Source of the DNA: a virus
Lineage: Duplodnaviria; Caudoviricetes
IMG/VR virus record: IMGVR_UViG_3300002026_000124
Coordinates: 8,176-72,175 of that record
DNA: 64,000 nt
Reading direction: 5' to 3' (one strand)
Shown here: positions 16,196 to 63,817 of the stretch, piece after piece
How the letters are laid out: every line of letters starts with the position of its first letter
Numbering within the stretch: position 1 is the stretch's first letter
Made by a program: the position numbers and the translations under genes
Notes under the pieces: generated by a model
Database searches by the model: none
The model's input: the letters and a program-made list of their open reading frames with translations, nothing else
What the model was told of the DNA's origin: nothing

Positions 16196-16226
16196 TTTGT
16201 ATTTATGATTTTAAGTCGTACATTTG
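16196..16226 (+). promoter_or_regulatory. Bacteroidota-type sigma70 promoter of tRNA operon 1
   Basis: TTTG (16196-99), 19-nt spacer, TACATTTG (16219-26). Confidence 0.75.
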
Positions 16227-16255
16227 TACTCTGTAATAGTTAAACATAGTTTGAA

Positions 16256-16330
16256 ATGAAAAATTTAGTAAACATACAACCCCAGCCGCAACAACATCCA
16301 AAAGATGGTGAATGGGAAAAGTTTGCTTAA
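16256..16330 (+). CDS. attenuator leader peptide 1 (Pro/Gln/His)
   Basis: MKNLVNIQPQPQQHPKDGEWEKFA*; QPQPQQHP core matches the downstream Pro/His/Gln tRNAs. Confidence 0.85.
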   Translation: MKNLVNIQPQPQQHPKDGEWEKFA

Positions 16331-16357
16331 ATTTTCAAGAGAAGTTTTAGGTTAATT

Positions 16358-16389
16358 AAACCCCATTCGTGACGAGTGGGGTTTTTTTT
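16358..16389 (+). terminator. attenuator terminator 1
   Basis: AAACCCCATTCG-TGA-CGAGTGGGGTTT plus T-run; 5' arm complementary to GAATGGG 16310-16316. Confidence 0.85.
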
Positions 16390-19190: not shown

Positions 19191-19221
19191 TTTGTATTTA
19201 TCAAAAATGTCTCTATCTTTG
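19191..19221 (+). promoter_or_regulatory. Bacteroidota-type promoter of tRNA operon 2
   Basis: TTTG (19191-94), 19-nt spacer, TATCTTTG (19214-21). Confidence 0.75.
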
Positions 19222-19253
19222 CAGAGAATTTAATTAGTGAAAACAATAAAGTT

Positions 19254-19367
19254 ATGAAAAATTTACTCAACATATTATCAGTAGTCCTAGTGGATGCGCT
19301 CTTATGGGCAGCGGATGAGGATATGGTATATCGTGTCGGGTCGAAAGATACTGGAGTAGGTTATTAA
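19254..19367 (+). CDS. attenuator leader peptide 2 (Val/Leu/Asp/Ala/Trp/Glu/Met)
   Basis: MKNLLNILSVVLVDALLWAADEDMVYRVGSKDTGVGY*. Confidence 0.85.
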   Translation: MKNLLNILSVVLVDALLWAADEDMVYRVGSKDTGVGY

Positions 19368-19387
19368 TAACTGAAACAATAAAAACG

Positions 19388-19417
19388 AAACCCGACCCGA
19401 AAGAGTCGGGTTTTTTT
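19388..19417 (+). terminator. attenuator terminator 2
   Basis: AAACCCGAC-CCGAAAGA-GTCGGGTTT plus T-run; competing strand GTCGGGTCG at 19335-19343. Confidence 0.85.
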
Positions 19418-43607: not shown

Positions 43608-43700
43608 ATGAAAATTTTTGGCACATATTATTACGGTAAAAAATCTTATAAGAAACATCTTACGAGAATCGGGAATGTTATGTCCAAAAAGCAAAAATAA
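43608..43700 (+). CDS. attenuator leader peptide 3 (Tyr/Lys)
   Basis: MKIFGTYYYGKKSYKKHLTRIGNVMSKKQK*. Confidence 0.85.
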   Translation: MKIFGTYYYGKKSYKKHLTRIGNVMSKKQK

Positions 43701-43726
43701 GCAATGATTTTTGCATAAAGCACAGA

Positions 43727-43755
43727 GACCCGATTCGAAAGATTCGGGTTTTTTT
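43727..43755 (+). terminator. attenuator terminator 3
   Basis: ACCCGATTC-GAAA-GATTCGGGT plus T-run; competing GAATCGGG at 43666-43673. Confidence 0.85.
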
Positions 43756-43762
43756 GTTTTTA

Positions 43763-43931: not shown

Positions 43932-43936
43932 CAAAT

Positions 43937-44142: not shown

Positions 44143-44197
44143 CTTTTAGGGTTTTTTACTACTTTTTAAGTCCAATGTCCCAATAAAAAGTAGACAA

Positions 44198-44282
44198 GTA
44201 TTCGTAGCAAAGTGGTTATGCTCCTGCCTTTTAAGCAGAGTGTCTAAACAACACAACGTGGGTTCGATTCCCACCGAATACA
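44198..44282 (+). tRNA. tRNA-Lys(TTT) with long variable arm
   Basis: CTGC-CTTTTAA-GCAG; variable hairpin GTGT-CTAAACA-ACAC. Confidence 0.82.
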
Positions 44283-44287
44283 CAAAT

Positions 44288-44370
44288 GGACAGGTGGGTG
44301 AGTGGTTAAAACCGCCAGACTGTAAATCTGGTAGCTTCGGCTTTCGGGGGTTCGAATCCCTCCCTGTCCA
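44288..44370 (+). tRNA. tRNA-Tyr(GTA)
   Basis: CCAGA-CTGTAAA-TCTGG. Confidence 0.93.
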
Positions 44371-44383
44371 CAAATATATGATT

Positions 44384-44620
44384 ATGGAAACACTAAAAGA
44401 AATTGTGAATGGAACTATGGCTAAACTAAGCCATATATGCAATGGTAAAGCGTATTATAGAATTGATAATGAGAATCATTCTTATCAACTTGAAATTAAT
44501 TGCAATGATGCTGAATGGAAAGATGTGTATATCTATCCTGAAATCAAAGCAATTACATTAATGAGGTGGATACGCAAGGGTATTGAAAAACAGGATGACA
44601 CATTCATCGTGTTGAAATAG
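44384..44620 (+). CDS. hypothetical protein
   Basis: Start reassigned to METLKEIV. Confidence 0.55.
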   Translation: METLKEIVNGTMAKLSHICNGKAYYRIDNENHSYQLEINCNDAEWKDVYIYPEIKAITLMRWIRKGIEKQDDTFIVLK

Positions 44621-44626
44621 GCTCAA

Positions 44627-44698
44627 GCACTCGTGGCAGAATGGCGATGCTACTCCCTCTTAAGGAGACCAATAGGGGTTCGATTCCCTTCGGGTGCA
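44627..44698 (+). tRNA. tRNA-Lys(CTT)
   Basis: CTCC-CTCTTAA-GGAG. Confidence 0.85.
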
Positions 44699-44703
44699 CA
44701 ATT

Positions 44704-51197: not shown

Positions 51198-53513
51198 ATG
51201 AAAAAACATGTAAAAATTGATGAAGGCTATTTCCTTGCCACGCAAGAAGTTAATAGCAATGTAACTGTAGAAGTGCAGAAAAGAACCAATCACATATTTG
51301 TGGTTGACGTAAGTGGTTCAATGTATAATGAGCTGCCACTAATCAGAACCCAATTGAAAAACAAACTCTCTAACCTGATGAAGGAAGGTGATACAATTTC
51401 AATTGTTTGGTTTTCCGGAAGAAACGATGCTGGAATCTTAAAAGAAGAAGTTGAAGTTAAATCCCTGAAAACCCTTAGCGACCTCAACGATGCAATTGAC
51501 AAATGGCTTCGTACTGTTGGGTTAACGGCTTTCTATAAACCATTACAACTTGTAAAAGAGTTGGTTGGTAGAATTAAAGTAAACAGACCCGATTCAGTGT
51601 TCTCAATGATTTTCCTTACAGACGGTTATAACAATGACTGTCCTTGGAATGAAGTGACAAAGGCACTTAAAGACCTTGAAAATGATGTAGTTAGTTCAAC
51701 ATTCGTTGAATATGGATACTACGCTGATTCCCGCAAACTCACCGAAATGGCTTCAATTCTTGGTGGTGAGAAAATCTCAACAAGTAATTTTGATGAATAC
51801 GAACCGATATTCGACAGAAAAATATCATCAAGTATCAATGGTGGTAAAAAATCTGTTGTAGAAATCACCGATGCGTATCTTTACGATTTCGCATTTAGTG
51901 TTGGTGTTGACGGTAGTGTTTTATTGTACAACATTGTTGACGGAAAAATCCTGGTTGGCTCAGATGTAAAAGAAGTTCACTTTTTCAGTTCAACTGCTAT
52001 TGGTGAATTAAGTCTTCCACATTATCCAAAAAGTGAAAGATTGGATACTGCACTTTATGCTGCAATCTATGTACTTGCCGACAAACTCATGAACGATGAT
52101 GCAGAAAGAATTTTCTATGCACTCGGTGATAATCATTATTACAATATGTTAGCGAATGCTTTTGGTAAACAAAAACTTAATGGTTTTAAAACCGCTATTA
52201 AGGAATGCGTTGCTGACGTATCGAAAAGATTTCCGGATGGTGTAGCGAAAATTAAAAAGGTTGACGACAATGCGTATTGCCTAATGAATCTTATTGAAGA
52301 TTTAGGTAGTATCGATGGTTGCCTTTTCTATCCAAGTGATTCTAATTTCGTTTACAACAGAATTGGTAGAAAGAAAGTAGCTAGGGGTGAAAACCTTTCA
52401 GATGCTGATAAGAAGAGAATTGCCGAAGCCAAAAATGTTGAGGAACTGAGTAAAATCACCGAAGAAATCAGTGAAAAGAATATTGCGATTAAATTCAATA
52501 ATTCTGACCCTGATAGAGGTTATGCCTTAACTAATTTGGTTTGGAATGAAGAACGTGCCAATCTTTCAATTCTTATTCGTATTGAAGGTAATGCAACACT
52601 TCCTGCGAATAAATTCAAAATTGACAACATCGCAACCTACAAATACAATACATTCACTTTGGTGAAAGATGGTATTGTAAATGTGGACAAACTTCCGGTA
52701 AGCTATTCGAAGGAATTGTATGACCATTTAACTAGCAAGGGAATTAAATTCTTCGTTGTTGGTTCAGTATCTGCACCCGTTGTAACAAATCTCGATATTC
52801 CGAGAATCGTTATCGACCTTGCAAGTTTACCAATAGTAAACCGTGGAATGGTAAAAGCTGTTAGTGCAAACGAATTGGCTAAACAGGAATGGGAATTATT
52901 GAAGCTGCAAGCAAATAAGAAAGTTTACGATTACTACAGGAAATCATTGTTTCCTAAAGAAAGTAAATCTTTCATTGAATTGCTTACTCCTACTCTCGGT
53001 GCTGAAAAAGCACAGGAATGTGCCGATTGGCTTAAAGAAGTTGGTATTACTGACTTTAATGGTTTTGCACCAAAGACTGATTTCGAAGAATCTACGGATT
53101 TCTACATGTCAGTTAACTTGGCTACCAAAATCAAAGGTCTTTCAAGTCTACCAAAGGTAGAAGATGTTGTGGCTAAAATAGCAAGTGGTGCTGCTTTGAA
53201 GGTAAGCGAATGGGCAATGTCCGGAGCGATTAAAGCATATCAAGCTGCTCAAGAATCTGACATTTATAAAACATTGTCAGAGGAACAGAAGAAGGAAGCA
53301 CTTCGCACTTACCTCATTTCTAAAGCAACTGAATTGAATATTGCTAAGAGAAAAGTTATGCAAGAAATTGCACAAATTAAATTCTCTCTTATTCTTTCAA
53401 AGAAATGGTTTGTTGAATTCAAGAGTTTCGATGAAAACAAATTAAGTCTTAAACTTGATGGTCAGGATTTAGAATTTACTTTCGATTTAAGTGAAAAGGA
53501 AGAAAAAATCTAA
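51198..53513 (+). CDS. large vWA domain protein
   Basis: VVDVSGSM, FLTDG. Confidence 0.8.
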   Translation: MKKHVKIDEGYFLATQEVNSNVTVEVQKRTNHIFVVDVSGSMYNELPLIRTQLKNKLSNLMKEGDTISIVWFSGRNDAGILKEEVEVKSLKTLSDLNDAIDKWLRTVGLTAFYKPLQLVKELVGRIKVNRPDSVFSMIFLTDGYNNDCPWNEVTKALKDLENDVVSSTFVEYGYYADSRKLTEMASILGGEKISTSNFDEYEPIFDRKISSSINGGKKSVVEITDAYLYDFAFSVGVDGSVLLYNIVDGKILVGSDVKEVHFFSSTAIGELSLPHYPKSERLDTALYAAIYVLADKLMNDDAERIFYALGDNHYYNMLANAFGKQKLNGFKTAIKECVADVSKRFPDGVAKIKKVDDNAYCLMNLIEDLGSIDGCLFYPSDSNFVYNRIGRKKVARGENLSDADKKRIAEAKNVEELSKITEEISEKNIAIKFNNSDPDRGYALTNLVWNEERANLSILIRIEGNATLPANKFKIDNIATYKYNTFTLVKDGIVNVDKLPVSYSKELYDHLTSKGIKFFVVGSVSAPVVTNLDIPRIVIDLASLPIVNRGMVKAVSANELAKQEWELLKLQANKKVYDYYRKSLFPKESKSFIELLTPTLGAEKAQECADWLKEVGITDFNGFAPKTDFEESTDFYMSVNLATKIKGLSSLPKVEDVVAKIASGAALKVSEWAMSGAIKAYQAAQESDIYKTLSEEQKKEALRTYLISKATELNIAKRKVMQEIAQIKFSLILSKKWFVEFKSFDENKLSLKLDGQDLEFTFDLSEKEEKI

Positions 53514-53691
53514 TCATTTTTAATAAATTAAAACCCCGGAAAATATTCGGGGTTTTTTTGTAACGTAAACTTAATATTCGTTTTTGATTCATAACAGTAT
53601 GTATAGTTGTCAGGTCGGAAAGTGCCTTAAATGTTCCTATACTGGAATTGCCTGATTCCCTTTTTTATTGTATTTATATAGAAAGACTGTC

Positions 53692-53931
53692 ATGAAAAGA
53701 AAATTATTTGCAATCATATTAATTTTATCCGTAATATTATTATCTGGATGTGCAACCGAACAATATGCACAAGTACATCGGAAGAAAAAATCGTTGATGT
53801 TGTTGAAAAACACTGAGTTAGATAGGAATATTAAACTTTATAAACAAAGGCATAATCATTATAATAAACGTGATTTTGATAAGCATATTAGAAAACAAAA
53901 AAATCATTTTTACGGTAATTCTAAAAAATAA
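53692..53931 (+). CDS. putative lipoprotein
   Basis: MKRK, hydrophobic stretch, LSGC lipobox. Confidence 0.6.
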   Translation: MKRKLFAIILILSVILLSGCATEQYAQVHRKKKSLMLLKNTELDRNIKLYKQRHNHYNKRDFDKHIRKQKNHFYGNSKK

Positions 53932-53941
53932 TTGAAAAAAG

Positions 53942-53972
53942 TTTGCAGATATTGAAACTTTATTTACCTTTG
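53942..53972 (+). promoter_or_regulatory. Bacteroidota-type promoter of tRNA operon 4
   Basis: TTTG (53942-45), 19-nt spacer, TACCTTTG (53965-72). Confidence 0.75.
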
Positions 53973-54014
53973 CGGAGTATTTAGTTTTATACAAGACATA
54001 AAATTTATAAAATA

Positions 54015-54143
54015 ATGAAATCACAAGTATCCAATATTAACATTTCGTCAACGATTAATAGTCGTAATGGAGAAAGTATATTCTGTTCAAGTTTTACAGG
54101 CAGAAATATAGCGGATACGGGTTCAGGATTTTTATCGTGTTGA
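54015..54143 (+). CDS. attenuator leader peptide 4 (Ser/Asn/Ile/Thr/Phe/Cys/Gly/Arg)
   Basis: MKSQVSNINISSTINSRNGESIFCSSFTGRNIADTGSGFLSC*. Confidence 0.85.
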   Translation: MKSQVSNINISSTINSRNGESIFCSSFTGRNIADTGSGFLSC

Positions 54144-54166
54144 AATAAACACAAAAAAATTAAAAA

Positions 54167-54197
54167 GAACCCGAATTCGCAAGATTCGGGTTTTTTT
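54167..54197 (+). terminator. attenuator terminator 4
   Basis: AACCCGAAT...GCAA...ATTCGGGTT plus T-run; competing CGGGTTC at 54118-54124. Confidence 0.85.
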
Positions 54198-54213
54198 ATG
54201 TTCTTTTTATACT

Positions 54214-54284
54214 GTCGGGATAATTTAGTGGTAGAATGCTTGTTTGGTATTCAAGCAACACCAGTTCGATTCTGGTTCTCGGCT
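54214..54284 (+). tRNA. tRNA-Thr(GGT)
   Basis: Loop TTGGTAT. Confidence 0.82.
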
Positions 54285-54372
54285 CAAAATATAACTCTTA
54301 CGGGTTATAAATACAAAATATAACCTCTACAGGTTATACTCCGTAAGATGTTCATTGACATGCTGGTTTTAT

Positions 54373-54447
54373 GCACGGATGGTCGAGTGGTCAAAGGCAA
54401 CGCTCTGCAAAAGCGTACAATCGTGGGTTCGAATCCCACTCCGTGCT
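54373..54447 (+). tRNA. tRNA-Cys(GCA)
   Basis: ACGCT-CTGCAAA-AGCGT, U73. Confidence 0.92.
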
Positions 54448-54494
54448 CTGGGTCGTTTTCGTACTTTCTCAGTATTTATCTGAAAGTACAAATT

Positions 54495-55157
54495 ATGGCA
54501 AGAAAAGAAAAACAATATCATTTCATTTATAAGACAACTAATAAGTTGAATGGTAAATATTATTACGGAATGCATTCCACAAATAATTTAAATGATGGAT
54601 ATTATGGTTCAGGAAAAAGATTGAGACGTTCTTTGAATAAATATGGTAAAGAAAATCATGTTGTTGAATATCTTGAATTTCTACCCGATAGAAAATCGCT
54701 AATTGAACGTGAAAAAGAAATTGTTAATTTAAATGAAATTGCGAAAGAAGATTGTATGAATCTAATGGTTGGTGGAAAAGGTGGTTTTATTTCAGAACAG
54801 GCATTGAAGGGAAGATATGCTGCAGATAAAATTTTGATTGAAAAATATGGTGAGAATTGGCGAAGAGTTATTTTTAGAAAATATTTTGATGGTTTAAGTG
54901 ATGAAGAAAAAGAATTAATTTATCAGAAAATGAAAAAAACTAATGAAATAAATGGATATGACTATAAAGGTTTTTTAGGAAAAAAACATTTACCTGAAAC
55001 CATAGAAAAAATGAAAAAAAGTAAGAATGTTGGGATAAATAATTCACAATTTGATACTTGCTGGATTTATTCTGATGAATATAGTAAACCACAAAAAATT
55101 AAAAAATTTCAATTAAATGAATTTATTAATCGTGGTTGGCGAAAGGGAAGAAAATAA
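54495..55157 (+). CDS. GIY-YIG (Seg-like) homing endonuclease
   Basis: MARKEKQYHFIYKTTN...YYGMHST...GYYGSG; paralogue of 20132-20776. Confidence 0.88.
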   Translation: MARKEKQYHFIYKTTNKLNGKYYYGMHSTNNLNDGYYGSGKRLRRSLNKYGKENHVVEYLEFLPDRKSLIEREKEIVNLNEIAKEDCMNLMVGGKGGFISEQALKGRYAADKILIEKYGENWRRVIFRKYFDGLSDEEKELIYQKMKKTNEINGYDYKGFLGKKHLPETIEKMKKSKNVGINNSQFDTCWIYSDEYSKPQKIKKFQLNEFINRGWRKGRK

Positions 55158-55160
55158 TAC

Positions 55161-55241
55161 TGTGACGTGGATGAATGGTTTAGTCACCACGCTGATACCG
55201 TGGGTCGCAAGACAACGTGGGTTCGAGTCCCACCGTCACAA
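55161..55241 (+). tRNA. tRNA-Ile(GAT) with long variable arm
   Basis: CCACG-CTGATAC-CGTGG; variable hairpin GTC-GCAA-GAC. Confidence 0.85.
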
Positions 55242-55273
55242 CAAAGCAATCAAAATTTTAATCATTCACTAAT

Positions 55274-55358
55274 GGAAGAGTGTCCGAGTGGTTTATGGTG
55301 GCAGTCTTGAAAACTGCTGGATGTAAAAGTCCCGTGGGTTCGAATCCTACCTCTTCCG
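55274..55358 (+). tRNA. tRNA-Ser(TGA)
   Basis: GCAGT-CTTGAAA-ACTGC, G73. Confidence 0.93.
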
Positions 55359-55397
55359 CACTATTTAATTGGAAATTGGGTAGAATATTTAAAAAAA

Positions 55398-55482
55398 GGA
55401 GGGGGGACAGGATGGTAATGTGCCTGTTTGCTAAACAGAGGCTGGGATAATACCCAAGAGTGGTCGGTACACTCTCTCTCCG
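55398..55482 (+). tRNA. tRNA-Ser(GCT), aberrant T-loop
   Basis: Loop TTGCTAA; T arm GAGTG-GTCGGTA-CACTC. Confidence 0.75.
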
Positions 55483-55483
55483 C

Positions 55484-55930
55484 AAAAAAGGTTAGTAATC
55501 CAGAAGCCTAACCAGCCGAAGGGTGAAGTTTCCTTAATGAAATTGATACAAACAAGCACCTGTGGTGGGATTGCAATGTGTTGATAAATTAGTTAAAAAC
55601 TCATTTCGACTTTAATATTGGAACATGAAGATTTATGGTGCACCTTATCTTCTGGAAGGTTCGAAACCTTTGGAGTCGGCTAGAATCACATGCAGTGGAT
55701 ATCATCATGTGGTTTGTGCACCAAAAAAGAAGTCATGACTCTTTGAGGTGTAAAAGTTCTGGGATGCATAAGAGGCTGACCTAATGTTCTGTTGGAATTT
55801 GAGTGTTAGTAGATTTATTTACACGTACTTGGCAATACGATTAACACGATAGTTCTCCGAGACATTTTAAGTTACCTGCAATGGTATTCGGGAGACGTGA
55901 GTAGAAGGCTCACCCCAGAACTTATTTTTA
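55484..55930 (+). ncRNA. candidate large structured ncRNA
   Basis: No long ORF; long-range helices 55754-63/55914-23 and 55636-43/55716-23. Confidence 0.45.
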
Positions 55931-55932
55931 AT

Positions 55933-56008
55933 GCATCGGTAGTGCTATAATGGTTAAAACGGCTGTCTGTTAAACAGCGAGATGCAGGTTCGACTCCTGC
56001 TCGATGCG
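55933..56008 (+). tRNA. tRNA-Asn(GTT)
   Basis: GCTGT-CTGTTAA-ACAGC, G73. Confidence 0.85.
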
Positions 56009-56163
56009 CAAAAAGGGACAAGTAAATGGAACAAACCTTGTTTCCGCAGGGTGAGTTTGCCGTCTAAAGCACGGACATTTGCATCGGAATTGTCCTTTAT
56101 AGGTCGGGTTGCAGAGGGCGCAATTCGGGTAACTGCCTCACAAGGTAGCCTATATAATATTAT

Positions 56164-56235
56164 GGAGATATAGCTGAGTTGGTTTAGCGGTGGCGTGAAG
56201 TCCCACAGACACAGGTTCGAATCCTGTTATTTCCA
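56164..56235 (+). tRNA. tRNA-Phe(GAA)
   Basis: Loop GTGAAGT, one stem mismatch. Confidence 0.75.
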
Positions 56236-56326
56236 CTTGAGTGCGATAAATAATGTTTCGCAGCATATTATTAATGCATCCCTGTTAATATGTTGTGGGT
56301 GAGATTCCCACGCTTAAAAGAATTAT

Positions 56327-56399
56327 GGTGCAGTAGCAAAGTTGGTCAACGCATCGGACTGAAAATCCGACTATGGTGGTTCGAATCCACCCTGCACCA
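56327..56399 (+). tRNA. tRNA-Phe(GAA)
   Basis: TCGGA-CTGAAAA-TCCGA. Confidence 0.9.
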
Positions 56400-56406
56400 C
56401 AGTAAT

Positions 56407-56481
56407 GCGGGTATAGCACAACGGTTAGTGCGTCTGGCTTCCAACCAGAGGATGTCGGTTCGATTCCGATTACCTGCTCCA
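56407..56481 (+). tRNA. tRNA-Gly(TCC)
   Basis: TCTGG-CTTCCAA-CCAGA, U73, CCA. Confidence 0.93.
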
Positions 56482-56483
56482 TT

Positions 56484-56555
56484 GCACACTATAACTTAAT
56501 TGGTAAAGTGCTTGATTTGTAATCAAGATATGCGGTTCGAGTCCGATAGAGTGCT
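56484..56555 (+). tRNA. tRNA-Thr(TGT), imperfect stems
   Basis: CTTGA-TTTGTAA-TCAAG. Confidence 0.7.
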
Positions 56556-56641
56556 CAACAATGTCTTCCACACCTCTAAATTATGTGCATCTGGAAGGCT
56601 ACTTGTCGAACCCAATCATAGTACTGTGATTGGGTTCATAT

Positions 56642-56714
56642 GGTGATGTGGCGCAACGGTCAGCGCAGGACGCTTATATCGTCAAGGTTGTGGGTTCGAG
56701 TCCCACCTTCACTA
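56642..56714 (+). tRNA. tRNA-Ile(TAT)
   Basis: GACG-CTTATAT-CGTC, A73. Confidence 0.85.
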
Positions 56715-56729
56715 CAAAATTAATAACAT

Positions 56730-56818
56730 GGGAGTGTAGCTGATTAGGCTTTAGCTGCAGACTGTTAATCTGTGAATGAAAAATTGAAATAAAGTAGGTT
56801 CGAATCCTTCCTCTCCCG
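56730..56818 (+). tRNA. tRNA-Asn(GTT) with 20-nt A-rich variable region
   Basis: GCAGA-CTGTTAA-TCTGT, G73. Confidence 0.78.
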
Positions 56819-56856
56819 CTCTAAATAATTGCAATATTCTTCGTATTTATGTTGGA

Positions 56857-57756
56857 ATGAATTACAAAAATTTACATACTATTATTAACGAAGAAATTCA
56901 GAACGTTTTAGATGAAACGTATAAAAGTGTTGACGAAATTAAAAAATTAGCGAATAATATTCTTATCACAACTGCTGAGAAAAATTTCGAAAAATATAAT
57001 ACTGACGGGTCATTCAGGTACATTTATGGTGTAAATGTAGACCAAATGGATTCAAATAAGTACGATGAAATAAAAAATTATGTTATTGAAAGTAATGTTC
57101 AAATATATTTCCAACCCAAAGACGATAAAGGTAGTAATAAAGCAGATTATAGCAATATTGTAACACATAAAGGTGAAAAGTATAATCCAAGAACTGAAAG
57201 AGATATTAACCTTTATTATGATTACAATAGATTTAAAGAAAAAATTGATGAAATTTTAATTGAACATGTAATTAGTAGAACTGATTTTTATTCTAAACTA
57301 TATTACGAATTCTACACATCTTTGGTTCACGAACTTCAACATTCTTATGACGATTATCGTAGTGGTGGTATGGCGTATAACACTCCTGAAAATAAGAATT
57401 ATAGGAAAAATTATTACCGGAAAATGGAAAATAATATTGTGAGAAGTCAAATTAATGACATGGAAATGTATAAGAAATATTTAAATCTACCCCACGAAAT
57501 ATGGGCGAGATTTTCACAAGCGATGATTAAGGTTCATTTTTATACTTGGGATATTGATAAATCAAGTGATACTCAAATCATATATTCTATGTATCCATTA
57601 AAACAGGTATTAAATGATTTCAGATATGCATTTGATAATTTTAAGGTTTTATCACCGGAAACACAAAAAAGACTCTATAGAAAAGTCTCACAATTCTGGC
57701 ATATTGAACAGGAAAAAATTAATGAGCTTAATAAGAATGGTGGTAATAAACCTTAA
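56857..57756 (+). CDS. zincin-like metallopeptidase with INEEI leader
   Basis: LVHELQH and downstream HE; late motif 56843-56850. Confidence 0.65.
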   Translation: MNYKNLHTIINEEIQNVLDETYKSVDEIKKLANNILITTAEKNFEKYNTDGSFRYIYGVNVDQMDSNKYDEIKNYVIESNVQIYFQPKDDKGSNKADYSNIVTHKGEKYNPRTERDINLYYDYNRFKEKIDEILIEHVISRTDFYSKLYYEFYTSLVHELQHSYDDYRSGGMAYNTPENKNYRKNYYRKMENNIVRSQINDMEMYKKYLNLPHEIWARFSQAMIKVHFYTWDIDKSSDTQIIYSMYPLKQVLNDFRYAFDNFKVLSPETQKRLYRKVSQFWHIEQEKINELNKNGGNKP

Positions 57757-57797
57757 ATTTCCCAATATTAATAATGTTTCTAATAGTTCTTAATAAT

Positions 57798-57869
57798 GCA
57801 CCGGTAACTCAGTGGTAGAGTGTCTGGCTGTTAACCAGAGAGTCGGGGGTTCGAATCCCTCTCGGTGCG
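57798..57869 (+). tRNA. tRNA-Asn(GTT)
   Basis: TCTGG-CTGTTAA-CCAGA, G73. Confidence 0.93.
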
Positions 57870-57940
57870 CAAAACACTTGCTAATTGAAAAATTTTAATT
57901 AACTTTACTACAAAATAATTTTAATTAAAATATAATAAAA

Positions 57941-58315
57941 ATGGAAGGTATGAGAATCAGAGGTAATAGAGAAACTAAAGTTGATAAAGCAAACTTAATT
58001 GAACAAATTAAACTGAATAAAAAAAATCATGTCAGGGAGTACGAAAAGGCAATTCTTGCTTATAAAGAAGAGGCACTAAATCAATTAAGTAAAGAGTTTA
58101 AGAGAGTTGAAAATGGTGCTCTTGACGCTAAATTGGATTTGATAACCCCAATCAATAATGCTAAAAACTACGATAAGATTATCGAAATGTTTGAATGGGA
58201 AGTTGAAGATTATGTCGTTTTGACACAAGCAGAATTCAATGAATATGTTCAGGACGAAACCGAATTTGCTAGACAAGCTAAATTCTCGAACACATTTTAC
58301 TCCAATTCAATTTAA
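57941..58315 (+). CDS. hypothetical protein
   Basis: 124 aa ORF. Confidence 0.6.
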   Translation: MEGMRIRGNRETKVDKANLIEQIKLNKKNHVREYEKAILAYKEEALNQLSKEFKRVENGALDAKLDLITPINNAKNYDKIIEMFEWEVEDYVVLTQAEFNEYVQDETEFARQAKFSNTFYSNSI

Positions 58316-58364
58316 ACATTGGTAACGTCAATATGAAATAAGAGTATTTATGTGAAAAAGAATT

Positions 58365-58583
58365 ATGAAAAAAATTTGGAATTTTATTATTAGTAACATT
58401 ATCATGACCATTAAATCGGCATGGTACGCAATTCTTGCAGCAATAATTGGAACAATCGTTGGAATTATCTGGGATTTTAATACCGGATTTTTCACGTTTT
58501 TTGGAATTTGCATTGCATTTGTATTATTCATTTGGGTTCGTCAATTATGGTGGTGGATTACTAAAACAGGTGATTACAAATGA
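58365..58583 (+). CDS. small membrane protein
   Basis: Two transmembrane-like segments. Confidence 0.6.
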   Translation: MKKIWNFIISNIIMTIKSAWYAILAAIIGTIVGIIWDFNTGFFTFFGICIAFVLFIWVRQLWWWITKTGDYK

Positions 58584-59098
58584 AAGTAACTATTTTAAAA
58601 AATAGAAGAAGACCATTTCCATTCTTTCGTTTTCCAAGTCTAACAATATTCAGGAGAACTAAATCTTATTCAATTAAAATAAGATTTATGTTCACTGAAT
58701 CGTGTTTTTATAAATTTAATGATGCTGACCAATATGACATAAACAAATTATTTGGCTTTAGCATTGGTTTACACCATAATAATTCATTTAGATTTGGTTG
58801 GAGACCCAATGCTGATTTAAGTAAAATGGAAATCGTTGGTTATGAATATCTTAATAAATTAAGAATTCCAACATTACCAATTTGTGAAGTTAAGGTTGGT
58901 AAGTGGTATGGTTACGAAATAAGATATAATGCTAAAACGAATTATATTGAATACACAGTGACTAGTGAAGATGAAAATTTTGGAATGCAACATCCGGTAA
59001 AACAAAAAAATAAAATATTTTTCGGATATAAATTGGGTTTGTATTTCGGTGGTAATAAAAAACCACCACATAAGATGATTTTTTATAGGAGAAGTTAA
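58580..59098 (+). CDS. hypothetical protein
   Basis: 172 aa coupled ORF. Confidence 0.6.
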   Translation: MKVTILKNRRRPFPFFRFPSLTIFRRTKSYSIKIRFMFTESCFYKFNDADQYDINKLFGFSIGLHHNNSFRFGWRPNADLSKMEIVGYEYLNKLRIPTLPICEVKVGKWYGYEIRYNAKTNYIEYTVTSEDENFGMQHPVKQKNKIFFGYKLGLYFGGNKKPPHKMIFYRRS

Positions 59099-59099
59099 T

Positions 59100-60008
59100 A
59101 TGGGATTTGATATCAATAGCAAAACTGGTCGTTGGATTGACGAATATGGATTAATGTTGGGGCATAACCCCGATTGGAATCCAAATGGTGATATGGGTAA
59201 GGGCGATTGTATTGGTACGGCATTAGATGCATATCTTGCATATGACTATAAACCATTTGTGAGAGCGGTAAAGGGTTGCTACGAGATTAAAGAAGACGAA
59301 AAAGGATTATATGTTGAGGGTTATAGACATCCAAGCTATAAGAATGATGATTATAACGACATGAGTCGAGACCATATTCTGAATACTTTGGTACTAATGA
59401 AACTTAGTGATGAAAAGGTTTATTTAAAGTTTTTATCCAAAAATTTAAGGTGGAGAATTTCTGATAGATATAAATTTACCATTGATTTGTGGTTATGGAT
59501 GAAAGGAATTACCGGAAATCGATTTGCGATGTTAGCATATTATATGGTCATTATCGTAAGTATGTTTTTCTCAATATTGTTGAATAAAATAATCTATTTG
59601 TTAGCGGGTATCAGTAAAGAAGTTCCACAAGACAAATATGTACAGTTTGACAGAAGTAAATTTTCTAAATTTCAATTATTTTTAATTGGAATAAGATTTC
59701 CGATGTATACATTATGTCAAATGTCTTTCATGCTATATGCCACACCCGATTCCCCTGGTAAATGGTTATTGAAAAAGATTTGCTTATGGGGAATTGATAA
59801 AGAAAATTTCTTATTGAGAATAATGTATGGTGGAAAGGTTAGTGCTGAAGATGTCTACAATTATAAATCAATGAGTAGCTGGCGTTGGAGCACATACTTA
59901 AATGAATTAAATGACAGGGATTTATACATTATCACTGACCCCAAAGAACTTGAAGCTAATGTACTTGATGTAGATTTGCTTAGAAAAATGTATGAAAAAT
60001 TAAAATAA
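59100..60008 (+). CDS. hypothetical protein
   Basis: 302 aa ORF. Confidence 0.6.
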   Translation: MGFDINSKTGRWIDEYGLMLGHNPDWNPNGDMGKGDCIGTALDAYLAYDYKPFVRAVKGCYEIKEDEKGLYVEGYRHPSYKNDDYNDMSRDHILNTLVLMKLSDEKVYLKFLSKNLRWRISDRYKFTIDLWLWMKGITGNRFAMLAYYMVIIVSMFFSILLNKIIYLLAGISKEVPQDKYVQFDRSKFSKFQLFLIGIRFPMYTLCQMSFMLYATPDSPGKWLLKKICLWGIDKENFLLRIMYGGKVSAEDVYNYKSMSSWRWSTYLNELNDRDLYIITDPKELEANVLDVDLLRKMYEKLK

Positions 60009-60009
60009 T

Positions 60010-60092
60010 GCCGATGTGGTTCAGGGGTCGACAACGCCAGTCTTGTAAACTGGAGACGTAAGTCCGCGCTGGTTCGAATCCAGCCATCGGCT
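60010..60092 (+). tRNA. tRNA-Thr(TGT) with long variable arm
   Basis: CCAGT-CTTGTAA-ACTGG; variable hairpin GAC-GTAA-GTC. Confidence 0.85.
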
Positions 60093-60133
60093 CTCTAAAA
60101 ATAACTTTATTAATACAAATAACATGGAAAGCG

Positions 60134-60355
60134 ATGAAGGTAAGCAGAGAAAAAACAGCAACCTTGTTTCTATTCTTAGGAACATTTTTCAACCCATTGG
60201 GTTACGATGCAGCTCTAAAGTGGCTGATGGACACAACAGGCAGTTATTGGTTTTCAATTTCTATTTTTTACCTTGTATCGCTGTCTTGTTTTATATCTTA
60301 CTTTGTATTAGCTAAGATAAACCCTTTTAAAATTTTTACAAGAAAAAGGAATTAA
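60134..60355 (+). CDS. small membrane protein
   Basis: Two hydrophobic segments. Confidence 0.5.
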   Translation: MKVSREKTATLFLFLGTFFNPLGYDAALKWLMDTTGSYWFSISIFYLVSLSCFISYFVLAKINPFKIFTRKRN

Positions 60356-60387
60356 TGTTGGAAATTAATTCCCTTTTTATTACATTT

Positions 60388-60459
60388 GCCCTTATAGTAT
60401 AACGGATAATACAGAGGTCTTCTAAACCACAGATTGGGGTTCGATTCCCCGTAGGGGTA
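60388..60459 (+). tRNA. tRNA-Arg(TCT)
   Basis: Loop CTTCTAA, A20. Confidence 0.85.
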
Positions 60460-60478
60460 CTATCTTAAATTTAAAACA

Positions 60479-60661
60479 ATGAATAGAGTAAAAATTACGA
60501 TTAATGTCGACAGCGAAAAAGAATTAACTGAGAAAGAAATTGTTGAAGCAATGGTTAATTTTAAATATCGCTTAGAAGGATACACCACCGAGTCTCCTGA
60601 ATTTTTATCTAATGCTGAAATTAGTATTGATAAAAAATATGTTATAACAACACTCTCATAG
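60479..60661 (+). CDS. hypothetical protein
   Basis: 60 aa ORF between tRNAs. Confidence 0.45.
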   Translation: MNRVKITINVDSEKELTEKEIVEAMVNFKYRLEGYTTESPEFLSNAEISIDKKYVITTLS

Positions 60662-60723
60662 TTCAACGGATAGAATTGGAGTTTCCTAAACTTTAGACAC
60701 AGGTTCGATTCCTGTTGGGAGTA
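60652..60723 (+). tRNA. tRNA-Arg(CCT)
   Basis: Loop TTCCTAA, A20. Confidence 0.85.
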
Positions 60724-60738
60724 CAAAAAAATGTTATT

Positions 60739-61119
60739 ATGATTAGATTTTTAAATAAAAACGATAAAAAGGAGCTAAACAATTTAATAAAAATTGCTCT
60801 TAATGAAAAAATGTTTATTGTAAAAAAGAAAAATCATCATTTCTTCGGCTATTTTGAAGACAATAAATTAGTTGGCGTTGTTGGATTTTTTACAATGAAA
60901 AGATTTAAAACTATTGGTTTTGTAAGTGCATTTGTTTTACCCGAATATCGTGGAAAGGGTATTTATGATAAACTTTCGAAAGAAAGATTGGAATATTGTC
61001 AACAACATTATAACGGTTTTATCATATTTATAACAACAAATGATAAAAGCAGACCACAGATGGAAAAAATTGGTTTTAAATTGATTGAACATCAATATAG
61101 AATGTATTTAAATATTTAA
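60739..61119 (+). CDS. GNAT acetyltransferase
   Basis: FVLPEYRGKGIY motif A. Confidence 0.85.
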   Translation: MIRFLNKNDKKELNNLIKIALNEKMFIVKKKNHHFFGYFEDNKLVGVVGFFTMKRFKTIGFVSAFVLPEYRGKGIYDKLSKERLEYCQQHYNGFIIFITTNDKSRPQMEKIGFKLIEHQYRMYLNI

Positions 61120-61124
61120 CAATT

Positions 61125-61197
61125 GCCCTTGTAATTCAACGGATAGAATGCTTGGTTTCGACCCAAGTCGTTGCGGGTTCGAGTCCTGCCGAGGGTA
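61125..61197 (+). tRNA. tRNA-Arg(TCG)
   Basis: CTTGG-TTTCGAC-CCAAG. Confidence 0.9.
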
Positions 61198-61203
61198 CAA
61201 AAT

Positions 61204-61278
61204 ACACTTGTGGCGCAATTGGATTAGCGCAATTGATTACGAATCAATAGGTTGGGGGTTCGAATCCCTTCAGGTGTA
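61204..61278 (+). tRNA. tRNA-Arg(ACG)
   Basis: ATTGA-TTACGAA-TCAAT. Confidence 0.9.
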
Positions 61279-61287
61279 CTAATATGA

Positions 61288-61536
61288 ATGAAAATGAAAA
61301 AGTTAAAAACTAATATCTTAAAAAAGATTAATCAGAGAGTCCGTATTGTAAAAAACGGAGAATCTTTTGAAGTTCAAAGTAGAAAATCTGATATTGGAAA
61401 TTGGATTGGTATAAGTACTTTTGCCTCCCATCGAAAAGCATTAGATAAAAAGCATAACTATATAGTTATGATAGTGTTGAGGGATTTAGGATTTCGTTCT
61501 GAATTTGCTAACAGAAGAAAAAAAAGGAAAGGATGA
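61288..61536 (+). CDS. basic hypothetical protein
   Basis: 82 aa ORF. Confidence 0.5.
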   Translation: MKMKKLKTNILKKINQRVRIVKNGESFEVQSRKSDIGNWIGISTFASHRKALDKKHNYIVMIVLRDLGFRSEFANRRKKRKG

Positions 61537-61760
61537 AAAAGGAAAGGGTTATTGTAATATATGCCGATACATGGGATAATTTATGTGTTGAAATGCTAGG
61601 TTATTATCATGACCATTGCCGACATTATTATGCCGGATTAACCACCGAAACTCCCAAACACTTACAGGATTTAATTAAAGAGGAAAAAAATTATGTCTTT
61701 CTTTGCGAAGAAGACGAACCATATAAAGTCAATAATATGAAAAATTTTAATAGTTCTTAG
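61533..61760 (+). CDS. hypothetical protein
   Basis: 75 aa ORF. Confidence 0.5.
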   Translation: MKKERVIVIYADTWDNLCVEMLGYYHDHCRHYYAGLTTETPKHLQDLIKEEKNYVFLCEEDEPYKVNNMKNFNSS

Positions 61761-61786
61761 TTTGCCACTCTTGGTAAATTAAGATT

Positions 61787-61993
61787 ATGGTAGCTTTAAA
61801 AAAGAAGACCAAAAAACCACCAATGAAATATTGGTTGGTTGAACTCACCCTTACGAGTGGCAGAGTTCGAACATTTTATGTAAAAGCAAGAACAGAGTTT
61901 GATGCCTATAATAAGGCAGATTATTATGCTAGTCTTGCAAGTAACAAACAATTATTTGACTTGACAACATCTGAATTTAGATTGTTGTCATAA
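61787..61993 (+). CDS. hypothetical protein
   Basis: 68 aa ORF. Confidence 0.5.
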   Translation: MVALKKKTKKPPMKYWLVELTLTSGRVRTFYVKARTEFDAYNKADYYASLASNKQLFDLTTSEFRLLS

Positions 61994-62045
61994 ACACCGC
62001 AGGGTGGATGTAACTCCTAAAATCGTTATATTCACCCTGCTCCAT

Positions 62046-62116
62046 GCGTCTGTCGTTTAATGGATAGGACAGTCCCGTTCAAGGGATGTGTGGGGGTTCG
62101 AATCCCTCCGGATGCA
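62046..62116 (+). tRNA. tRNA with 6-nt anticodon loop (TTC or TCA)
   Basis: GTCCC-GTTCAA-GGGAT; Glu-like D-stem; canonical T arm. Confidence 0.65.
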
Positions 62117-62123
62117 CAATATT

Positions 62124-62199
62124 GCGGGATAGGTGTAAGTGGTTGCATGTCTGCTTGCCAAGCAGAAGGACTTAGAGAGTTCGACTCTCTCATCCCGCA
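62124..62199 (+). tRNA. tRNA-Gly(GCC)
   Basis: TCTGC-TTGCCAA-GCAGA; A73 and 8-nt variable region are atypical. Confidence 0.78.
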
Positions 62200-62257
62200 C
62201 AAATAAGTTCGAAAATCTTTTTTCGCATTTTTTTAGTATTTATGTTAAATAAATATT

Positions 62258-62941
62258 ATGAAATGGAATCAAGATGATGTTAATAAAGCAATTTCTTTAC
62301 ATCAAGCAGGAATGCAATTTAATGAAATTGCTCTATTAATGAACAGAAGTGTTCGTAGTGTTCAAGTGAGATTGAATAAGTTAGGCTGTGGTCAAAATAG
62401 ACACAAAACTACAGAAACAATAATATGTGTTGAATGTGGTAAAGAATTTATTGGATTAATAAAGGATAAAAGAAAGTTTTGTTCACAATCATGTAATGCA
62501 ACATTTAATAATAAGAAATTCCCCAAAAGAAAGAATGAAAATAAATCATCAAATTGTTTAAATTGTGGAGGCGAACTAAATTATAACCAACAAAAATTTT
62601 GTTCTAAGGAATGTAACGTTGTTCATAAACAAAATGAAACATACTGTAAAATTGAAAATGGCGATACATCGTTTTATGTGGATACATATAAAAGATATCT
62701 TATTCATAAACATGGTGAAAAATGTATGAAATGTGGATGGAATGAAATTAATCCAACAACTGGTTTAGTTCCAATTCAATTAGAACATAAAGACGGTAAT
62801 TCTGAAAATCATAATTTAAATAACTTGGAATTATTATGTCCTAATTGTCATTCATTAACACCAACATATGGTGCGTTGAATAAAGGAAATGGTCGTGAGA
62901 AAAGAAGATTAAAAAGACAAAATAAATTAGGTAATAATTAG
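62258..62941 (+). CDS. HNH homing endonuclease
   Basis: CMKCG...LEHKDGNSENHNLNNLELLCPNCHS; N-terminal Zn fingers. Confidence 0.9.
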   Translation: MKWNQDDVNKAISLHQAGMQFNEIALLMNRSVRSVQVRLNKLGCGQNRHKTTETIICVECGKEFIGLIKDKRKFCSQSCNATFNNKKFPKRKNENKSSNCLNCGGELNYNQQKFCSKECNVVHKQNETYCKIENGDTSFYVDTYKRYLIHKHGEKCMKCGWNEINPTTGLVPIQLEHKDGNSENHNLNNLELLCPNCHSLTPTYGALNKGNGREKRRLKRQNKLGNN

Positions 62942-62974
62942 ATAATGAAAACTTAAACTAAAAACCCATTTAAT

Positions 62975-63817
62975 ATGGGTTTTTTTCATATTTATTACAA
63001 ATACCTGTCTAGTAATAATATGAAAAAAATAATCCCTCTGTTTTTATTATCAATCACATTTAATTTATATGCGCAAATCGACACTATGAAAGACTATAAA
63101 TATAAAACAATTGTAATATCCGATGTTCATCTTGGATTAAAAGACTCTAAATCTGAAGAATGTATAGAGTTTTTAAAAAATAATCGATGTAAAAATTTGT
63201 TTTTAGATGGTGATATTATCGATGGTTGGCAGCTCAGTAGAGGTGGGAAGTGGAGAAAAAAGGATAGTAATTTCATAAAACAAGTATTGAAATTGTCAAA
63301 CAACGGTACTAATGTAGTTTATTTAAGGGGCAATCATGATGATTTCTTAGAAACTTTTATTCCATTTGTTATTGGATATAATTTTGAAGTGCTTAATGAT
63401 TACGTTTATGAATCATTTGGAAAAAAATATCTTATAATGCATGGTGATGTTTTTGACCCAATAACTACACAAGCGACATGGTTGGCAAAATTGGGGAGTG
63501 TTGGTTATGACATACTTTTATTTTTAAATAGACATCATAATAGAAGAAGACTTCAACAAGGACTTCCATATAAATCAATATCCCATGATATAAAGAAAAA
63601 TGTTAAATTTGTTGTTAATCTACTTTCAAGATTTGAAGATGCTGCTGTTGCATATGCAAAACAAAAAAAATGTGATGGAATTATCTGCGGACATATTCAT
63701 ACACCTGAAGATAAAATGATTAATGGAATTCATTATCTAAATTCTGGCGATTGGGTTGAAACAAAAAGTGCACTCGTAGAAGACCTTGAAGGAAATTGGA
63801 AAATCATTTATTATTAA
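62975..63817 (+). CDS. calcineurin-like metallophosphoesterase (LpxH-like)
   Basis: SDVHLG, GDIID, GNHD, HGD, GHIH, NSGDW. Confidence 0.88.
   Translation: MGFFHIYYKYLSSNNMKKIIPLFLLSITFNLYAQIDTMKDYKYKTIVISDVHLGLKDSKSEECIEFLKNNRCKNLFLDGDIIDGWQLSRGGKWRKKDSNFIKQVLKLSNNGTNVVYLRGNHDDFLETFIPFVIGYNFEVLNDYVYESFGKKYLIMHGDVFDPITTQATWLAKLGSVGYDILLFLNRHHNRRRLQQGLPYKSISHDIKKNVKFVVNLLSRFEDAAVAYAKQKKCDGIICGHIHTPEDKMINGIHYLNSGDWVETKSALVEDLEGNWKIIYY

Follow-up and report, generated by a model that had tools for sequence, protein, structure and literature searches.

A putative attenuator upstream of tRNA operon E

What controls the expression of a phage tRNA operon that is preceded by a short ORF and a strong terminator? 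To our knowledge, the means by which phages control their often large tRNA sets are largely unknown, and control of bacterial tRNA genes is generally thought to act at the promoter. The locus described here, called unit E, is located in a stretch of 64,000 nucleotides (the window) and is one of four such units on a 72-kb fragment of an uncultivated jumbo phage with Bacteroidota-type promoters. Its organization makes it quite probable that tRNA operon E is preceded by a ribosome-mediated (leader-peptide) transcription attenuator. This supports a proposal made earlier from the DNA letters alone (the sequence-only reading), in that all sequence-level parts of a leader-peptide attenuator are present and are conserved in relatives. 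The features of the unit, all on the + strand, are as follows.

53942..53972, +: promoter of the Bacteroidota type (a consensus match only), with TTTG (-33) at 53942-53945 and TACCTTTG (-7) at 53965-53972
54015..54143, +: leader ORF of 42 codons, starting with MK and ending with TGA
54030..54110, +: putative sensor codons, residues 6-32 of the leader, 26 of 27 for Ser, Asn, Ile, Thr, Phe, Cys, Gly, or Arg
54114..54124, +: putative antiterminator 5' strand, with the core CGGGTTC at 54118-54124, inside the leader ORF
54163..54199, +: intrinsic terminator (54163-54197 and a T run), with a 15-bp stem and a 5-nt loop, -17.4 kcal/mol
54214..62200, +: tRNA operon E, comprising 19 tRNA genes (identified by ARAGORN and confirmed by Rfam) with + strand ORFs among them

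Promoter, leader peptide, and sensor codons

A pattern scan returned the layout TTTG-N19-TACCTTTG for the unit E promoter. The full pattern occurs six times on the + strand of the window, and three of these matches stand before leaders. The sequence GAAAAAAG precedes the promoter of unit E and likewise those of units A and B. A sigma-70 consensus scan was uninformative, yielding 55 sites compared to 56 expected.

The leader ORF has both a start and a stop codon, and its reading frame is conserved. Its residues 6-32 have the composition that the sequence-only reading had claimed, wherein the single residue outside the eight-amino-acid set is indeed Glu (Glu20). Across the entire peptide, 34 of 41 residues belong to this set, whose background frequency is 0.455 (binomial P 8.8e-7). 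The correspondence extends to codons, since tRNAs of operon E can read 30 of the 41, whereas those of the other operons can read 1-5. Three of the 14 operon E anticodons (GGT, CCT, and TCG) lack a cognate codon in the leader, which also carries three AGT Ser codons whose cognate tRNA-Ser(GCT) is absent from the contig. By analogy with relatives, a tRNA-Ser(GCT) gene and a tRNA gene with a CTA anticodon are predicted just outside the contig.

Terminator and antiterminator

The previously noted pairing between CGGGTTC and GAACCCG (54167-54173) is exact in its positions, and the latter sequence lies in the 5' arm of the terminator. The antiterminator strand lies about 10 nt beyond the last sensor codon and 17 nt ahead of the stop codon. 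The duplex between 54114-54124 and 54167-54177 has a predicted energy of -13.0 kcal/mol, which is reached by 0.4% of shuffled sequences (p 0.004). When the footprint of a ribosome is masked during folding, the antiterminator is predicted to form with the ribosome at codons 10-30, and its strand is masked with the ribosome at codon 32 or at the stop codon. These modeled folds switch exactly as an attenuation model requires. Only 15 nt separate the T run from the first gene of the operon, a tRNA-Thr (6-27 nt across the four units). This gap leaves no room for a promoter, and therefore transcription of the tRNAs must cross the terminator.

The same terminator and antiterminator pair might be operated without translation by a T-box-like or protein-bound RNA switch, given that T-box leaders also carry competing helices of this kind and sense tRNA. 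However, a T-box would need a longer leader, and an Rfam search of unit E yielded neither a T-box nor any other riboswitch, whether the gathering threshold or an E value cutoff of 0.1 was applied. Searches with other curated Rfam leader families gave nothing above the gathering threshold, and the sub-threshold match to Thr_leader (RF00506; 28.6 bits versus a gathering score of 55, E 0.038) involves the terminator only. Moreover, an amino acid signal that is specific to one reading frame requires translation. We regard a translation-independent switch as the least probable of the explanations considered in this report.

Sister units in the window

Leader-peptide attenuation is also the arrangement suggested by three sister units, each located upstream of its own tRNA genes.

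16196..16389, +: unit A, with promoter, leader 16256-16330 (core QPQPQQHP), antiterminator 16309-16316, and terminator
16398-17316: unit A downstream tRNAs for Pro, His, and Gln
19191..19417, +: unit B, with promoter, leader 19254-19367, antiterminator 19335-19341, and terminator
19444-23848: unit B downstream tRNAs for Asp, Glu, Met, Val, Leu, Ala, and Trp
43608..43757, +: unit D, with leader 43608-43700 (core YYYGKKSYKK), antiterminator 43666-43673, and terminator
43763-44699: unit D downstream tRNAs for Lys and Tyr

The tRNA-Ala(TGC) gene of operon B (21778-21851) was found by Rfam and, at a lower threshold, by ARAGORN. A further tRNA cluster, C (34558-35728), carries no leader, terminator, or attenuator and is located directly 3' of an ORF.

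All 20 amino acids are partitioned among the four operons, and every leader contains all members of its own set. The three sister leaders each match their own operons (P 2.4e-4, 9e-4, and 8.5e-5). When the 20 amino acids were partitioned at random into sets of 3, 7, 2, and 8, none of 200,000 partitions reached the observed score of 76 of 129 (mean 35, maximum 70). A strong terminator with a competing antiterminator is present in all four units, each with p values of 0.002-0.02 against shuffled sequences.

Conservation in related phages

We assembled 32 leaders from the window and from at least 10 related phage contigs in IMG/VR, including complete genomes of 324-365 kb. Leaders within one type are homologous, and so these 32 cases do not represent 32 independent events. 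The open frame is retained in every one of them, and all set members are found in every leader (7/7, 8/8, 7/7, and 10/10 by type). The fraction of in-set residues for the four types is 0.36, 0.71, 0.33, and 0.80 in frame and ranges from 0.05 to 0.43 out of frame; for the E type, the in-frame value of 0.80 compares with 0.30 and 0.43 in the other two frames. The 10 E-type leader ORFs, which include nine further loci, are 39-45 codons long, and all are intact.

Of 31 units tested, 28 have a significant antiterminator; the three weak examples are one B unit (contig L019, p 0.053) and two E units (L025 and G002). Furthermore, the antiterminator covaries with the terminator arm, such that in type B AA, TCA, and T stand opposite the arm extensions TT, TGA, and A. 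A pattern built from the D-type antiterminator and terminator gave 16 matches in IMG/VR, in all of which a leader rich in Lys and Tyr precedes tRNAs for these two amino acids and no others. In B leaders, a TTG Leu codon occurs only when tRNA-Leu(CAA) is in or next to operon B (four loci versus three), a co-occurrence that hints at a link between leader codons and isoacceptors.

The well-conserved parts of some peptides, such as the cores of the E and D types, could suggest that the peptides themselves are functional. The leader ORFs might then be free-standing micropeptide genes with their own terminators, with the tRNAs expressed by constitutive leak-through and the composition match devoid of regulatory meaning. 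This explanation accounts for neither the set match that is never equaled by random partitions, nor the presence within each ORF of an antiterminator that covaries with its own terminator, nor the fact that the tRNAs have no other promoter. Consequently, we consider it very improbable.

The fit between leader and operon is imperfect. The E leader of G002, a relative with a complete genome, has Phe and Arg codons, whereas the Phe tRNA of this genome is located in cluster A and an Arg tRNA was not found. The Lys/Tyr unit of the same genome has lost its leader ORF. These observations indicate, at the level of sequence, that leader composition is partly inherited rather than tuned. Sequence and comparison show the parts of the unit, how they are arranged, the composition match, and the conservation of that match.

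An exact-word search with the shared promoter gave 15 loci, two of which are from relatives. Among 50,697 GenBank phage records searched by blastn and tblastn for cultured relatives, the only matches were to tRNAs, homing endonucleases, and distant terminases. Judged by its terminase (28% identity), Flavobacterium phage vB_FspM_immuto is the nearest named phage; its four annotated tRNAs, of which Rfam recovers three, are not preceded by an attenuator. A search for sequencing runs with the stretch 53000-62900 returned no RNA run; nine DNA runs contain it or part of it, and most of these are labeled as microbial mat metagenomes.

Extent of operon E

The sequence-only reading counted roughly 20 downstream tRNAs, and ARAGORN and Rfam recovered 19 + strand genes. 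By ARAGORN, these are for Thr (three), Cys, Ile (two), Ser, Asn (three), Phe (two), Gly (two), and Arg (four), plus one odd tRNA. Other features relevant to the extent of the transcript are listed below.

54348-55157, +: GIY-YIG endonuclease-like ORF (weak Pfam GIY-YIG match)
60348-60380: weaker hairpin followed by a T run, -10.7 kcal/mol, just ahead of the first Arg tRNA
60715-61119, +: GNAT ORF within operon E
62046-62117: Glu-like tRNA
62960-62984, +: first clear + strand terminator downstream of the attenuator

About 3 kb of ORFs lie between the proximal and distal tRNAs. The attenuator might govern the proximal tRNAs only. In that case, unrecognized internal promoters would drive the Arg and Gly tRNAs at 60388-62200, and the leader would retain its Arg and Gly codons as relics of a compact ancestral operon. 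The hairpin at 60348-60380 could stop some transcripts ahead of the Arg tRNAs, and a promoter-like site within operon A (17135-17165) demonstrates that internal promoters exist. However, the + strand from 54000 to 62200 carries no full TTTG-N-TAnnTTTG promoter, and near the Arg tRNAs there is a single -7 motif, whose end falls on the first base of the tRNA. In addition, the genes from 54015 to 62941 all share one orientation, and Arg and Gly codons are retained in 10 of 10 E-type leaders. We therefore view control of the proximal genes alone as possible but doubtful.

To account for leader codons that correspond to Arg and Gly tRNAs 6-8 kb downstream, the sequence-only reading had offered either one long transcript or a recently expanded operon. 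The second alternative fits better, in that the distance from leader to Arg tRNA is 6.4 kb in the window compared to 2.8-5.7 kb in relatives, and the surplus consists of inserted ORFs. The GIY-YIG-like ORF shares about 71% DNA identity over 137 nt with T4-type segB genes.

It had also been suggested that the Glu-like tRNA explains the Glu codon of the leader. This gene does encode a real tRNA by its score (40.8 bits), but its anticodon loop has 6 nt and ARAGORN leaves it as Glu|SeC, and so it does not safely explain that codon. Nor is it a clean candidate for a TCA suppressor. Recoding of stop codons was likewise rejected, as reading TGA or TAG as sense merely lengthens spurious frames.

Proposed mechanism and its significance

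From these features we infer leader translation, ribosome stalling, transcriptional read-through, and the reach of the transcript. Transcription would begin a few bases past 53972, and a ribosome would then translate the 42-codon leader. If sensor codons are decoded without delay, the ribosome should cover and then sit beside the strand at 54118-54124. With this strand covered, the terminator at 54163-54197 would fold and halt transcription about 15 nt ahead of the first tRNA. When charged tRNA is in short supply for one of the eight amino acids of the set, the ribosome is expected to stall on a sensor codon, leaving the antiterminator strand free to pair with the emerging 5' arm of the terminator. 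RNA polymerase could then read on into the tRNA genes, and thus the tRNAs are probably made only when translation lacks them. Since the sensor tests the very tRNAs that are produced, the circuit would constitute negative feedback on tRNA supply.

We lean, with some reserve, toward a broader model of closed-loop tRNA supply in jumbo phages. Four multivalent, ribosome-read sensors would together monitor 20 amino acids, each opening its own operon only upon slowed decoding of the codons of that operon, and would replenish exactly the tRNA sets depleted by an AT-rich genome, host shut-off, or host anticodon nucleases. Alternatively, the same mechanism might respond to amino acid starvation or translation stress in general, with the tRNA operons serving as part of a stress program. 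Classical attenuators sense charged tRNA, which is lowered by amino acid starvation and tRNA loss alike, and the Phe and Arg codons of the G002 leader that lack matching operon tRNA genes would also be explained by a general signal. Likewise, the Anabaena tRNA array is induced by general translational stress (PMC8421152). Such a signal would not call for four leaders whose division of the 20 amino acids exactly mirrors that of the operons, nor for every set member in each leader (32 of 32 cases), and extra tRNA gives no relief from amino acid starvation. For these reasons, a general stress signal seems unlikely to us.

If the closed-loop model is correct, these would be the first tRNA genes under leader-peptide attenuation, and the leaders would sense the supply of tRNAs rather than that of amino acids. 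A full-text literature search, whose coverage omits most subscription journals, did not turn up any description of tRNA genes regulated in this way. An attenuator whose output is the tested tRNA would represent a new regulatory logic that provides direct feedback on decoding capacity, and leaders with seven and eight amino acids would be the most multivalent known. The model would also offer a simple link between phage tRNAs and host tRNA depletion during infection or defense. Finally, the design is modular and takes up little space, about 260 nt, and could be used to report the decoding speed of chosen codons.

Comparison with known regulatory systems

The phage units would share with T-box riboswitches a decision between terminator and antiterminator that reports the state of specific tRNAs and feeds back on the machinery of tRNA charging. 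Unlike the phage units, T-boxes bind uncharged tRNA directly and without translation. The tRNA cluster of phage T4 resembles operon E in being interrupted by a GIY-YIG homing endonuclease gene (SegB in T4), and we know of no leader-peptide attenuator for that cluster.

As predicted for the phage operons, the trn operon of Anabaena sp. PCC 7120, a long accessory tRNA array, is silent by default and is induced when translation is impaired. Its control differs in that it depends on the repressor TrcR, which binds to direct repeats covering the -10 box and the transcription start (PMC8421152, PMC10272220). The words leader, attenuat-, and terminator are absent from the main text of the 2021 paper on this operon (PMC8421152). 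Anabaena has one array with no sensors for individual amino acids.

In Escherichia coli, the pheM leader of pheST applies leader-peptide attenuation to a gene of the translation apparatus, such that slow decoding raises decoding capacity. That system differs from the phage units in that it is chromosomal, has an aminoacyl-tRNA synthetase as its target, and responds to a single amino acid.

Several multivalent attenuators are known from enterobacteria, including the thr leader (Thr and Ile) and the ilvGMEDA leader (Ile, Val, and Leu), along with trpL, hisL, leuL, and pheL. The phage units share with these leaders a promoter, a short ORF rich in regulatory codons, and an antiterminator that overlaps the 5' arm of the terminator. 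In both, the position of the ribosome selects the helix (predicted for the phage units), and more than one amino acid can be sensed by a single leader. The phage units are encoded by a phage and have no sequence relationship to the enterobacterial leaders. Whereas the latter control biosynthetic enzymes, the phage units appear to control tRNAs, with up to eight amino acids per leader and all 20 covered by four leaders.

Unit E and its leader peptide

Unit E is one of four proposed leader-peptide attenuators (units A, B, D and E), each of which precedes its own tRNA operon. Sequence statistics, structure and comparison all lend good support to its assignment as an attenuator, and on these grounds we regard this function as likely. 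The coordinates and sequence letters given for the unit in the sequence-only reading are exact. The leader ORF (54015-54143) has 42 codons, and 26 of the 27 residues at positions 6-32 are indeed Ser, Asn, Ile, Thr, Phe, Cys, Gly or Arg. Over the entire peptide, 34 of 41 residues fall in this set (binomial P = 8.8e-7, with amino-acid usage in long ORFs of the window as background). Under strict wobble rules, 30 of its 41 codons are readable by operon E tRNAs, versus 1-5 by those of the other operons. For the three AGT Ser codons, the contig offers no cognate tRNA; relatives have tRNA-Ser(GCT) on the far side of tRNA-Gly(GCC), a place that here would be past the contig end.

The downstream tRNAs, previously put at roughly 20, amount to 19 genes to position 62200 (ARAGORN). 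One at 62046 had been described as Glu-like; its anticodon loop has 6 nt, and it is not assignable to Glu.

62046-62117, + strand: tRNA-like gene (Rfam, 40.8 bits) with the 6-nt anticodon loop GTTCAA; ARAGORN is undecided between Glu and SeC

As proposed, CGGGTTC (54118-54124) is complementary to GAACCCG (54167-54173). The latter is part of the 5' arm of a 15-bp terminator hairpin (-17.4 kcal/mol) followed by a T run, which lies 15 nt before the start of tRNA-Thr. In units A, B, D and E, the strongest pairing of the leader with the terminator 5' arm consists of 7-8 G+C-rich base pairs (-12.0 to -14.2 kcal/mol), a strength matched by only 0.2-2% of shuffled leaders. The antiterminator strand starts 9-13 nt past the final sensor codon, and its end precedes the stop codon.

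Leader E was also folded as transcribed to the terminator loop, with the presumed ribosome-covered stretch masked. When the A site is at codons 10-30, the antiterminator helix forms. When it is at codon 32 or the stop codon, the antiterminator strand is masked and the 5' arm is free for the terminator. When the full leader is folded without constraints, the initial codons of the ORF take up the antiterminator strand by pairing and the terminator hairpin is formed, which corresponds to the 1:2 / 3:4 state of classical attenuators.

Four units divide the 20 amino acids

16196-16389: unit A, followed by tRNAs for Pro, His and Gln
19191-19417: unit B, followed by tRNAs for Asp, Glu, Met, Val, Leu, Ala and Trp
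43608-43757: unit D, followed by tRNAs for Lys and Tyr
53942-54199: unit E, followed by tRNAs for Thr, Cys, Ile, Ser, Asn, Phe, Gly and Arg

The units share a common plan, in which a leader starting with MK carries the antiterminator strand late in its ORF and is followed by a terminator, with the first tRNA 6-27 nt farther on. The promoter form in the window is the Bacteroidota TTTG-N19-TAnnTTTG; the full consensus precedes units A, B and E, and unit D has a near match to the -7 box alone. All 20 amino acids are split among the four operons with zero overlap, and no leader lacks any member of its own set. Own-set enrichment is evident in leaders A, B, D and E (P = 2.4e-4, 9e-4, 8.5e-5 and 8.8e-7, respectively). 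In total, 76 of 129 leader residues match their own set, versus a mean of 35 and a maximum of 70 when the 20 amino acids were drawn at random into sets of the same sizes; none of 200,000 such partitions scored as high.

The tRNA cluster C (Leu, Leu, Met; 34558-35728) directly follows an ORF and has no attenuator unit. Within operon A, a second putative promoter lies directly before the last tRNA-Gln(TTG), which may thereby escape the attenuator.

17135-17165, + strand: full promoter consensus within operon A

The phage and its relatives

The window, with a G+C content of about 33%, forms the final 64 kb of a virus record of 72,175 bases. Among its encoded products are a T4-type large terminase, ribonucleotide reductase, a tail-fibre chaperone domain and a tmRNA. 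Its 47 tRNA genes (ARAGORN) are all on the + strand. An additional tRNA-Ala(TGC) at 21778-21851, read as carrying a G3:U70 pair, comes from Rfam and from ARAGORN at a lower threshold. Most DNA runs containing the sequence are labelled as microbial mat metagenome.

33174-33458, + strand: tmRNA gene (Rfam RF00023, 69.5 bits, full-length match), between tRNA operons B and C

Relatives were retrieved from IMG/VR with the proteins adjoining the tRNA clusters. Four are contigs of 324-365 kb rated complete by CheckV, one with terminal repeats, and each of these four carries 34-59 tRNAs. Given their sizes, the window is a fragment of a jumbo phage.

Conservation of the leaders

The complete genomes retain the operon order A, B, C, D, E. 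We compiled 32 leaders (7 type A, 8 type B, 7 type D and 10 type E), and all 32 have an open frame. The mean in-frame fraction of in-set residues is 0.36 for A, 0.71 for B, 0.33 for D and 0.80 for E, versus 0.05-0.43 in the two other frames. No leader lacks any amino acid of the set for its type, and this holds for the rare Trp, Cys, Met and His as well. Type B peptides differ substantially in sequence while their seven-letter alphabet stays constant. Because leaders within one type are homologous, this conservation partly reflects descent.

The antiterminator reaches significance (p of 0.05 or lower) in 28 of the 31 units examined, and it covaries with the terminator. Type B arms in which ACCCGAC is extended by TT, TGA or A face strands that carry AA, TCA or T, respectively, ahead of GTCGGGT. 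For each of the type E arms (GAACCCG, AACCCGAT, AACCCGGTC and AAACCCGAAA), the ORF contains a complement of its own. The D-type pattern of antiterminator and terminator arm occurs at 16 IMG/VR loci, all of which have a Lys/Tyr-rich leader followed exclusively by Lys and Tyr tRNAs.

The TTG Leu codon is present in the B leaders of four loci with tRNA-Leu(CAA) in operon B or at most 2 kb from it, and is missing from those of three loci where this tRNA is in the separate cluster C. This small signal is suggestive of isoacceptor-level correspondence.

One complete genome, G002, shows decay or mismatch of leader versus tRNA content. Its tRNA-Phe gene lies in cluster A and a search for Arg tRNAs found none, yet Phe and Arg codons are kept in its E leader. 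Its Lys/Tyr unit (L043-L044) has lost the leader ORF, and a weakened hairpin remains before a single tRNA-Tyr. Judging from sequence, this unit is an example of system decay.

16897-16945 (own coordinates of the reverse-complemented G002 stretch): Lys/Tyr remnant

Extent and contents of operon E

The sequence-only reading had offered one long transcript or a recently expanded operon to explain the distant Arg and Gly tRNAs. All credible genes in 54015-62941 are on the + strand, no full promoter consensus was found inside this interval, and the next clear + strand terminator past attenuator E is at 62960-62984. These features are compatible with a long operon E transcript. However, a T-run hairpin of similar strength (60348-60380, -10.7 kcal/mol) lies just upstream of four Arg tRNAs, and thus partial termination there is possible.

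Operon expansion gains support from the relatives. The leader and first Arg tRNA are 6.4 kb apart in the window, versus 2.8 kb in the complete genome G001 and 4.6-5.7 kb in other relatives. The extra length consists of ORFs, including the two genes below, and Arg and Gly codons are present in all 10 E-type leaders.

54348-55157, + strand: GIY-YIG ORF whose DNA resembles that of T4-type segB homing endonuclease genes
60715-61119, + strand: GNAT acetyltransferase gene, between Arg tRNAs

Two further features were noted among the operons.

55690-55930, + strand: non-coding element in operon E, conserved and relatively rich in G+C, located between tRNA-Ser(TGA) and the following tRNA
19422-19437, + strand: motif TTC(T/A)TTGACATG(T/C)TGG, between the attenuator B terminator and the first tRNA
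54351-54366, + strand: second copy of this motif, before tRNA-Cys in operon E

The non-coding element is 69-73% identical to sequences at the syntenic place in three relatives (L029 13254-13475, L030 13438-13622 and L022 13837-14053). It has a closing helix GTTCTGG/CCAGAAC and compensatory changes in 10 of 42 pairs (RNAalifold), and has no Rfam match. Possibly, it is a structured RNA of a new kind. The short motif is also present after B- and E-type terminators in relatives, and may be a processing signal.

In three complete relatives (G001, L041-L042; G003, L038-L040; G004, L035-L037), the last tRNA of operon E has a CTA anticodon (amber suppressor type; 'Pyl' in ARAGORN). The window's contig ends before the corresponding place, and no sign of TAG or TGA recoding was found within the window.

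Comparison with known systems

We infer that unit E would act by classical ribosome-mediated attenuation. Its closest counterparts are the thr and ilvGMEDA leaders, which are multivalent, and, where the target belongs to the translation apparatus, the pheST leader. An Rfam search placed it in none of the leader families and not in the T-box family.

The nearest published biology is the Anabaena trn array, which is silent until translation is impaired (PMC8421152, PMC10272220). Its control, however, is exerted at the promoter by the repressor TrcR (PMC8421152, PMC10272220). In full-text literature searches, leader-peptide control of tRNA genes did not turn up. As a mechanism this belongs to a known kind, but its tRNA-gene target, the breadth of its sensors and its phage setting are new within the literature searched.
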